Shown: positions 2,443-2,790 of the stretch, piece after piece | Layout: each line of letters opens with the position of its first letter | How positions within the stretch are numbered: position 1 is the stretch's first letter | DNA from: a virus | Lineage: Duplodnaviria > Heunggongvirae > Uroviricota > Caudoviricetes | DNA length: 21,851 bases | Reading direction: 5' to 3' (one strand) | Virus record (IMG/VR): IMGVR_UViG_2547132277_000002 | Notes under the pieces: model-generated | What the model saw: only the letters and a program-made list of their open reading frames with translations | Databases searched by the model: none | Told to the model about the DNA's origin: nothing | Made by a program: the position numbers and the translations under genes

Positions 2443-2517
2443 TGGAGCGGGCAGCGGGAATCGAACCCGCATCATCAGCTTGGAAGGCTGAGGTAATAGC
2501 CATTATGCGATGCCCGC
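2443..2517 (-). tRNA. tRNA-Gly (anticodon UCC)
   Basis: 75 nt, CCA encoded; acceptor GCGGGCA/TGCCCGC, anticodon stem TCAGC/GCTGA, loop CUUCCAA, T-arm GCGGG-TTCGATT-CCCGC; resembles E. coli glyT as recalled. Confidence 0.75.
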
Positions 2518-2520
2518 ATA

Positions 2521-2596
2521 TGGTGCCGACTACCGGAATCGAACTGGTGACCTACTGATTACAAGTCAGTTGCTCTACCTACTGAGCTAAGTCGGC
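2521..2596 (-). tRNA. tRNA-Thr (anticodon UGU)
   Basis: 76 nt, CCA encoded; acceptor GCCGACT/AGTCGGC, D-arm GCTC-AGTAGGTA-GAGC, anticodon stem ACTGA/TCAGT, loop CUUGUAA, T-loop TTCGATT. Confidence 0.65.
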
Positions 2597-2598
2597 AC

Positions 2599-2675
2599 TG
2601 GACCGCCACCGGGGACTCGAACCTCGCACACTCAACTTAAAGAGTTGACGCTCTTTCCTGATGAGCTAGTGGCGG
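2599..2675 (-). tRNA. tRNA of uncertain identity (manual fold gives anticodon UUU, Lys-like, with atypical C at position 33)
   Basis: 77 nt, CCA encoded; acceptor CCGCCAC/GTGGCGG (C1-G72), D-arm GCTC-ATCAGGAAA-GAGC, anticodon stem TCAAC/GTTGA, loop UCUUUAA, T-loop TTCGAGT. Needs tRNAscan-SE. Confidence 0.5.
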
Positions 2676-2676
2676 T

Positions 2677-2752
2677 TGGTGGCCCTTGCTGGATTTGAAC
2701 CAGCGACCTGGCGATTATGAGTCGCTCGCTCTCACCACTGAGCTAAAGGGCC
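2677..2752 (-). tRNA. tRNA with CAU anticodon, ileX/ileZ-like (tRNA-Ile2; elongator Met not excluded)
   Basis: 76 nt, CCA encoded; GGCCCTTTAGCTCAGTGGTGAGAGC...CTCATAA...GGTTCAAATCC...AAGGGCCACCA closely resembles E. coli tRNA-Ile2 as recalled; anticodon loop CUCAUAA. Confidence 0.7.
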
Positions 2753-2761
2753 GGGCGCAGG

Positions 2762-2790
2762 ATAATAACGTTACGAAATCAATGTTGCAA
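2762..2790 (-). promoter_or_regulatory. Sigma70-like promoter driving the tRNA array / late operon (candidate PR-prime)
   Basis: Minus-strand -35 TTGCAA (plus 2785-2790), 17-bp spacer, -10 TATTAT (plus 2762-2767); predicted start just upstream of the first tRNA (5-prime end at 2752). Confidence 0.45.

Follow-up and report, generated by a model that had tools for sequence, protein, structure and literature searches.

The stretch of DNA analysed here (the window, 21,851 nucleotides (nt) in length, filed as the viral record IMGVR_UViG_2547132277_000002 in IMG/VR) is a lambdoid, or lambda-like, Escherichia coli prophage adjoining potCD. At positions 2443-2790 it harbours, on the minus strand, a predicted promoter and a compact array of transfer RNA (tRNA) genes, one of which, with a UUU anticodon and a cytosine at position 33 (C33), is the principal subject of this account and is referred to below as the atypical tRNA. 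The tRNA genes predicted by ARAGORN across the window number exactly four, each on the minus strand, and the same four are recovered by the Rfam family RF00005 with 72.5 (Ile2), 43.8 (Lys-type), 73.8 (Thr) and 56.8 bits (Gly) against a threshold of 29; their E-values over the whole window range from 2e-6 to 1e-14, far beyond chance. No other RNA family rises above noise in the region 1900-3050. CCA is encoded behind every tRNA and the intergenic gaps measure 1, 2 and 3 nt, bearing out the tightly packed minus-strand array described by an earlier, sequence-only reading.

The first gene in transcription order is a tRNA-Ile2 of the ileZ type with anticodon CAU (2677..2752). It is identical to the ileZ of Shiga toxin (Stx) phages at 76/76 positions and matches K-12 ileX at 68/76, the differences including a compensatory change from C6-G67 to U6-A67. 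ARAGORN-style pipelines label ileZ as Met (here, Met/Ile2-CAU) and PGAP as Ile (tRNA-Ile in RefSeq). The atypical tRNA follows at 2599..2675, called Lys-ttt by ARAGORN and tRNA-Lys by RefSeq; it was previously counted as the third gene, a place that it holds only in plus-strand order. The remaining two genes are copies of host genes. The tRNA-Thr with anticodon UGU (2521..2596) is identical to K-12 thrU at 76/76 positions, whilst the tRNA-Gly with anticodon UCC (2443..2517) matches K-12 glyT at 74/75, the change U11 to C producing a C11.A24 mismatch in the D-stem that lowers the Rfam score from 64.9, the value for glyT, to 56.8. This U11C change is common to 15/100 prophage copies, and 12 other copies carry a compensatory change from C6-G67 to U6-A67. 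The sequence-only reading had placed the same A-C mismatch at T-stem positions 52-62 in both the Thr and the atypical tRNA. It is indeed at 52-62 in tRNA-Thr, where it is the native state of host thrU, but in the atypical tRNA the mismatch lies at 51-63 and is shared with argN, a phage arginine tRNA gene. The 24 coding sequences of the prophage use ATA, ACA and GGA at 10.3, 19.4 and 12.6 per 1000 codons, approximately 1.5-3 times the E. coli averages, and this heavy use makes it reasonable that ileZ, Thr and Gly serve codon supply.

The flanks of the array agree with the promoter, terminator and holin originally proposed around it. Upstream lies a sigma-70-like promoter (2762..2790, minus strand; TTGCAA-17 nt-TATTAT), which agrees with the consensus at 9/12 positions and whose predicted start is ~2-4 nt upstream of the first tRNA; its function is inferred. 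The promoter scan alone does not exceed chance, with 4 sites found and 4.2 expected. However, the promoter block is identical in the PPompW phage and shows just two differences in the Stx phage Stx2a_F349, where it lies directly upstream of ileZ, and it is this conservation with the PPompW and Stx-phage arrays, not the scan score, that renders the promoter credible. Downstream, a terminator scan identifies an intrinsic terminator (2220..2235, minus strand), in which the strong hairpin GCCCGC-TTTT-GCGGGC is followed by the T-run TTTTCTTTT, between the array and a class II holin gene (1935..2150, minus strand). The latter, annotated by RefSeq in a near-identical stretch of E. coli strain B2C, is the first of the lysis genes that follow the array. 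The late antiterminator Q (4546..4896; Pfam Phage_antitermQ, E 1e-44, and RefSeq) is encoded on the same strand, 1.8 kb upstream of the array.

In the cmscan alignment, the atypical tRNA has a C1-G72 acceptor pair, the discriminator U73 and a 5-bp anticodon stem (UCAAC/GUUGA) that closes the loop U32-C33-U34-U35-U36-A37-A38, confirming the acceptor pair and the UCUUUAA loop with C33 that had been read by hand. The window copy also possesses U8, A14, G18-G19, the T-loop UUCGA, a purine at position 37 and the 3' CCA, and its 43.8 bits place it above the Rfam gathering score of 29. Since position 33 is C, the gene lacks the U33 (U-turn) nucleotide of a canonical elongator tRNA. Its anticodon, U34-U35-U36, comprises the determinants recognized by lysyl-tRNA synthetase (LysRS) and is accompanied by the U36-A37-A38 required for N6-threonylcarbamoyladenosine (t6A), as in tRNA-Lys. 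Its discriminator, by contrast, is U73 rather than the A73 expected of tRNA-Lys(UUU) in E. coli, and identity to host lysT is 50.6%, which argues against descent from the lysT family. Position 35 is U, and the gene is thus also without C35, the major determinant of arginyl-tRNA synthetase. A canonical identity assigned through a different fold, or a pseudogene score, had been named as results that would refute the hand reading. Only half of this came about: a tRNA-Lys identity was given by ARAGORN and RefSeq/PGAP, but on the same fold, with C33 in place and with no pseudogene flag from RefSeq/PGAP. The moderate Rfam score (44.4 for the major variant of this gene) is equalled by argN, which scores 43.0 with a canonical loop, so the low value originates from the tRNA body and not from C33. 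The cloverleaf lies 3.4 kcal/mol above the minimum free energy (MFE) structure, compared with 1.3-2.2 for thrU and lysT. MFE folding was nevertheless set aside as uninformative for judging whether a tRNA is genuine, as the Thr copy (identical to thrU), ileZ and host lysT also have MFE structures below their cloverleaf. The anticodon stem UCAAC/GUUGA (2633-2649) corresponds to the host lysT stem GUUGA/UCAAU with its strands exchanged, which may be chance.

To judge from its sequence, the atypical tRNA is a descendant of the argN lineage whose anticodon arm was remodelled to UUU with C33. It shares 83.1% identity with the argN of Stx phages and has A20, C1-G72, U73 and A51.C63 in common with it. 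Between argN and the major variant there are 12 differences, and six of these fall inside the 17-nt anticodon arm (P = 0.03). Three of the changes lie in the anticodon stem and maintain or improve its pairing, G30-C40 having become A30-U40 and U27.G43 having become U27-A43, whilst in the loop C-U-UCG-A-A gave way to C-C-UUU-A-A (with U32 in the window copy). The retained A20, typical of arginine tRNAs, suggests that the direction of change was from an arginine to a lysine-type tRNA. A search for a donor tRNA carrying the same anticodon arm on another backbone returned only non-tRNA chance matches. Near-full-length copies are present in 792/5426 complete E. coli genomes, and a species-level scan found the exact T-arm to be confined to Escherichia and Shigella; two further T-arm matches, in an archaeal metagenome-assembled genome and in one of Pirellulales, were taken as chance. 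C33-UUU-A37-A38 is kept in all 116 IMG/VR copies, which represent 15 variants, and in all 38 metagenome copies, with only C, U or A at position 32 among the copies sampled. No version without C33 was found in the IMG/VR or metagenome collection. Likewise, among the 797 E. coli genomes with a member of the family, 279 have the exact major variant and none has its U33 version. The proposal that the window gene might be a privately decaying copy is therefore not supported: C33-UUU is fixed lineage-wide, argN is the source of C1-G72, U73 and the mismatch in the T-stem, and the Rfam score equals that of argN. In t6A-modified tRNAs that decode ANN codons, U36-A37-A38 is a strict determinant, and the range of C, U or A at position 32 is tolerated (PMC13276492).

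A G3.U70 pair occurs in the argN of Stx2a_F349 (locus L003, 2643-2719) and in the PPompW Lys-type variant (locus L002, 2671-2746), whereas the window copy has G3-C70. As G3.U70 is the main identity pair of alanyl-tRNA synthetase, mischarging of the G3.U70 variants, argN and the PPompW Lys-type tRNA, with alanine is possible.

Viewed as a whole, the array is a mosaic, in which a phage module (promoter, ileZ and the argN derivative) is followed by two host genes copied in compacted form. In composition it varies on the ileZ-argN-argO array known from Stx phages, and it is already annotated in RefSeq. The argN homology, the thrU and glyT origin of the Thr and Gly genes and the recurrence of C33 in phage tRNAs, described below, were all absent from the sequence-only reading. 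Of 5426 complete E. coli genomes, 502 have the four-gene array; the phage records vB_EcoM-606R7, vB_EcoS-689R5 and PhiR47_1 contain it too, at 96.6-98.6% identity. Amongst ~125 IMG/VR cuts, the architecture Ile2-Lys-Thr-Gly occurs 95 times, Ile2-Lys-Arg 13 times and Ile2-Arg-Arg seven times, and the PPompW phages possess an intermediate form, ileZ-Lys(C33)-argO. Annotation of the atypical gene varies, with the records ON470580.1 and ON470583.1 listing tRNA-Met, Thr and Gly only and skipping it, and the PhiR47_1 record and RefSeq labelling it tRNA-Lys. Nothing relevant on ileZ, argN and argO was found in the literature searched.

The occurrence of C33 extends beyond this lineage. IMG/VR was scanned for C32-C33-UUU-A-A at the correct distance from a T-loop, excluding the atypical tRNA family, with the scan and its control sets covering IMG/VR loci L175-L294, L295-L414, L415-L533 and L534 onwards; the hits are ARAGORN predictions from viral loci and the counts are lower bounds, not true frequencies. 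Among the matches listed, 56/120 are tRNA-Lys(UUU) genes with C33, carried on 45 different backbones, and in 52 of these 56 cases the locus stretch examined has no other Lys(UUU) gene. Seven such genes, among those checked, score 57-70 Rfam bits, and 13 that share a cloverleaf exhibit compensatory changes at 16/21 pairs. The same scan design identified at least 84 tRNA-Thr(UGU) and at least 21 tRNA-Arg(UCU) genes with C33. In a control of 119 viral loci picked for a canonical U33 tRNA-Lys, C33 was present in 15/681 other tRNAs (2.2%), and across viral contigs it is not Lys-specific, being found also in Thr, Arg, Val, Ile and other tRNAs. C33 recurs in phage tRNAs that are otherwise good, and cannot on its own be read as decay. 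No description of recurrent C33 in phage tRNAs was found in the literature searched.

On balance, the atypical tRNA is probably a weakly constrained, low-efficiency auxiliary tRNA-Lys. In the mechanism envisaged, the sigma-70-type promoter (2790..2762) would start a transcript a few nt before the first tRNA, and transcription would end at the 2235..2220 hairpin unless Q-modified polymerase arriving from upstream reads through into the holin gene. Cleavage by RNase P together with exonuclease processing is the known behaviour of E. coli polycistronic tRNA transcripts; here, RNase P would cut each 5' end and 3' exonucleases would trim back to the encoded CCA, freeing four tRNAs. Three of these, ileZ (reading AUA after lysidine modification) and the copies of thrU (ACA) and glyT (GGA), would supply decoders for heavily used A-ending codons. 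The fourth, the atypical tRNA, would most likely still be matured and charged by LysRS via its anticodon, and would serve AAA/AAG at lowered efficiency and under weak selection, with C33 as a trait fixed across the lineage, tolerated and perhaps of use, rather than a sign that this copy is decaying. That the tRNA still works is suggested by the retained U36-A37-A38, by an Rfam score equal to that of argN, by the invariant C33-UUU and by the lack of any non-C33 version.

A number of observations weigh against this interpretation. At least four host tRNA-Lys(UUU) genes are found in a single cluster in K-12, which has six in all, and with several host genes available codon supply alone is a weak motive for carrying another. 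Charging of the atypical tRNA may also be poor or ambiguous. In addition, it is the least constrained of the four array genes. In 69 arrays with homologous flanks, to which the comparison was restricted as the flanks across all arrays are mosaic and unusable as a neutral reference, nucleotide diversity (pi) is 0.0047 for ileZ, 0.0065 for Thr and 0.0074 for Gly, but 0.0274 for the atypical tRNA (unanchored 5' 51 nt), compared with 0.0185 for downstream non-coding DNA. Sublineages with C8 account for 17/116 copies and those with a D-stem deletion (delta-U12) for 15/116, the deletion variant falling below the Rfam threshold, and pair-breaking G-to-A variants exist, albeit as singletons or doubletons. 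Covariation within the argN/Lys family is not significant, its one compensatory pair being matched by 118/500 shuffles, although this test is weak owing to the limited divergence of the family. As only one site is involved, the lack of U33 revertants carries no decisive statistical weight. Finally, U33 is conserved in elongator tRNAs save in exceptional cases (PMC5041475) and its mutation reduces decoding efficiency (PMC3664417). Weak constraint on the lineage as a whole is supported by the diversity, which resembles that of the non-coding flank, and by the C8 and D-stem-deletion sublineages. The commonest stem variants are C-to-U changes that retain G.U pairs and, with pair-breaking variants rare, this distribution fits weak purifying selection on structure.

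The same observations raise the question of whether the gene decodes at all. A second interpretation, which we consider possible but doubtful, is that the atypical tRNA is a non-decoding relic or processing spacer, kept because it lies 1-2 nt from its neighbours and retains a fold good enough for cleavage by RNase P, and acting as punctuation that aids only the maturation of ileZ and Thr, or as neutral baggage. Its diversity, which resembles that of adjacent non-coding DNA and is 4-6 times that of ileZ, Thr and Gly, would be in keeping with such a state, as would the C8 and delta-U12 sublineages at 13-15%, the PPompW variant under the gathering score, the restriction of the lineage to Escherichia and Shigella and the two GenBank phage records that leave the gene unannotated. 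C33 departs from the near-universal U33, and the combination of U73 with A20 matches neither lysine nor arginine identity cleanly. Nevertheless, RNase P needs no anticodon arm, yet this is the arm that was remodelled with a compensatory pair and is fully paired. The loop is invariant from position 33 to 38, with position 32 within the range of real ANN-decoding tRNAs, and most of the highest-frequency variants are C-to-U changes that preserve structure. The Rfam score equals that of argN, and C33 itself is found in numerous tRNAs that score highly and have no second Lys(UUU) gene beside them in their phage locus.

The recurrence of C33 in phage tRNAs, coupled with the several host tRNA-Lys genes that make codon supply a weak motive, also invites an explanation based on counter-defence. 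In this scenario, a C33 tRNA-Lys(UUU) would replace host tRNA-Lys cut by the nucleases PrrC, RloC or the AriB component of PARIS, and would itself resist them. PrrC cuts 3' of U33 (PMC2610378), where the atypical tRNA has C33. AriB recognizes U36-A-A-U39-C40|A41 and U16, with U39A abolishing cleavage and A41C or U16C impairing it (PMC12409363), and the atypical tRNA has G39-U40-U41 and C16 in place of the determinants U39, A41 and U16. Moreover, the resistant tRNA-Lys of phage T5 differs at AriB positions, the adjacent Lys(UUU) and Thr(UGU) genes of the array correspond to the two prime AriB targets (PMC12409363), and phage tRNAs with altered anticodon loops have been proposed as a general evasion strategy (PMC10264068). 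C33, G39, U41 and C16 together make resistance plausible. Despite these parallels, we regard the explanation as improbable. The differences at positions 39-41 and 16 follow automatically from arginine-tRNA ancestry and need not be adaptations, C33 is not Lys-specific in viral contigs, and the T5 tRNA-Lys alone is insufficient against PARIS (PMC12409363). The neighbouring Thr and Gly genes are identical or nearly identical to host genes, and a host-type Thr(UGU) gives no rescue from P2 OLD, whose targets are Thr(UGU) and Gly(UCC); for these reasons, the Thr and Gly copies themselves are also unlikely to act against OLD or PARIS. Cleavage by the yeast gamma-toxin is unchanged by U33C, and weak sequence constraint would be unexpected in a defence-critical gene. 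The related proposition, that C33 is selected and recurrent in phage elongator tRNAs and that an arginine-derived tRNA-Lys(UUU) in ~15% of E. coli genomes sustains translation under PrrC, RloC or PARIS, is similarly judged to have a low probability.

A further alternative is that the altered loop serves recoding, either by reading stop codons or by promoting frameshifting, one candidate being a tail-gene slippery site, G GGA AAG. Decoding can be altered by changes in the anticodon loop, and the array holds both decoders, Gly-UCC and Lys-UUU, of the slippery heptamer at which the lambda G/GT frameshift takes place. However, the window contains neither tail genes nor such a site, and the atypical tRNA is also found with argO instead of Gly. 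The suppressor-type tRNA suggested by the sequence-only reading can be excluded, as UUU is complementary to no stop codon and, set in normal register in a loop of the usual 7 nt on a 5-bp stem, reads the sense codons AAA/AAG. Recoding in general is accordingly very unlikely.

The remainder of the window is consistent with its assignment as a lambdoid prophage, with a gene content of int/xis, a dicB operon with DicF, RusA, Q, the tRNA array, the holin and lysozyme, the gene for the last being interrupted by an insertion sequence (IS). Across the first 18.4 kb it shows three mismatches with E. coli strain B2C, a human stool isolate. The sole large difference from this near-identical strain is a 768-bp IS1 in the xis/int region (18390-19157), which is absent in B2C. 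At the other end, the IS21-family element ISEc62 (1-1125) truncates the phage lysozyme gene at 1126-1560, leaving the lysis cassette broken and the prophage defective here; related strains align to the window from position 1123 onwards only, indicating that ISEc62 is missing at this site in them. The antisense small RNA DicF (14987-15038, plus strand; 68.6 bits in Rfam) lies in the dicB operon, and a pseudogene of a Hok/Gef family toxin (8594-8695, minus strand) is also situated inside the prophage; a sok antitoxin RNA was found in one related locus (L005). Just upstream of the tRNA promoter, RefSeq annotates a 36-amino-acid 'antiterminator' remnant open reading frame (ORF; 2810..2920, minus strand), within which the terminator scan places a terminator-like hairpin (2877..2897, minus strand). 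Together, these suggest a former Q gene end or late-promoter region that was disrupted by cargo insertion. Between Q and the array, on the opposite strand, are a gene for a 292-amino-acid protein (3018-3896, plus strand) matching the PADLOC candidate defence family PDC-S42 (E 2.8e-53), with no Pfam domain, and beside it a 128-amino-acid ORF with no match (4146-4532, plus strand). A functional tie between the PDC-S42 gene and the tRNA array was considered and rejected, the two co-occurring in only ~11/120 related loci.

The array by itself is routine, being a prophage tRNA cluster already in databases. Of wider relevance is a tRNA with an arginine-type body, a lysine anticodon and C33 that inducible phages carry and that is found in about one complete E. 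coli genome in seven, and on which annotation pipelines disagree; it bears on tRNA sequencing, codon-usage modelling and studies of mistranslation in carrier strains. The recurrence of C33 in phage tRNAs has the widest reach; reviews treat U33 as nearly invariant in elongators. Should C33 tRNAs prove active, they would bear on how strictly the U-turn is required and on what tRNA genes do for phages, be it codon supply or escape from tRNA-cutting defences. The counter-defence explanation, if true, would provide an instance of counter-defence by tRNA in temperate phages of the lambda-like kind, and elongators would have a natural exception to the U33 rule.

Several known systems offer comparisons. 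The tRNA cluster of phage T4, tightly packed and co-transcribed, includes Ile-CAU, Thr-UGU, Gly-UCC and Arg-UCU and so has the same recurrent decoders for A-ending codons; T4, however, is a virulent phage, its tRNAs are not known to be copied from the host, and it is not known to encode a tRNA-Lys. Non-U33 tRNAs that are used in translation are known from eukaryotes, namely the initiator tRNA-Met with C33 and the Candida tRNA-Ser(CAG) with G33 (PMC5041475), the latter of which has also changed its decoding identity. These have established functions, whereas the atypical tRNA is a predicted phage elongator of the bacterial type. The AriB-escaping tRNA-Lys(UUU) of T5, and more broadly phage tRNAs with altered anticodon loops (PMC12409363, PMC11464382, PMC10264068), are, like the atypical tRNA, phage-encoded, and the atypical tRNA differs from host tRNA-Lys at positions 39, 41 and 16, which are important for AriB. 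In contrast to the T5 tRNA, it is a predicted temperate-phage gene with an arginine-tRNA body, and C33 is not the T5 change; furthermore, its Thr(UGU) neighbour is host-identical, whilst the T5 variants differ from the host. The K-12 operon thrU-tyrU-glyT-thrT-tufB provides a match to the Thr (76/76) and Gly (74/75) genes of the window, which lie 3 nt apart without tyrU, the 116-nt spacer, thrT or tufB, with Gly bearing its D-stem mismatch. The most direct counterpart is the ileZ-argN-argO array of Stx2a_F349 (AP012530.1), which occupies the same place, with Q upstream and late genes or cargo behind it, and has the same promoter block and an identical ileZ as its first gene. Its homologous second gene, argN (83%), shares C1-G72, U73, A20 and A51.C63 but has UCG, U33 and G3.U70 where the window has UUU, C33 and G3-C70, and its third gene, argO, is replaced in the window by the copies of host thrU and glyT.

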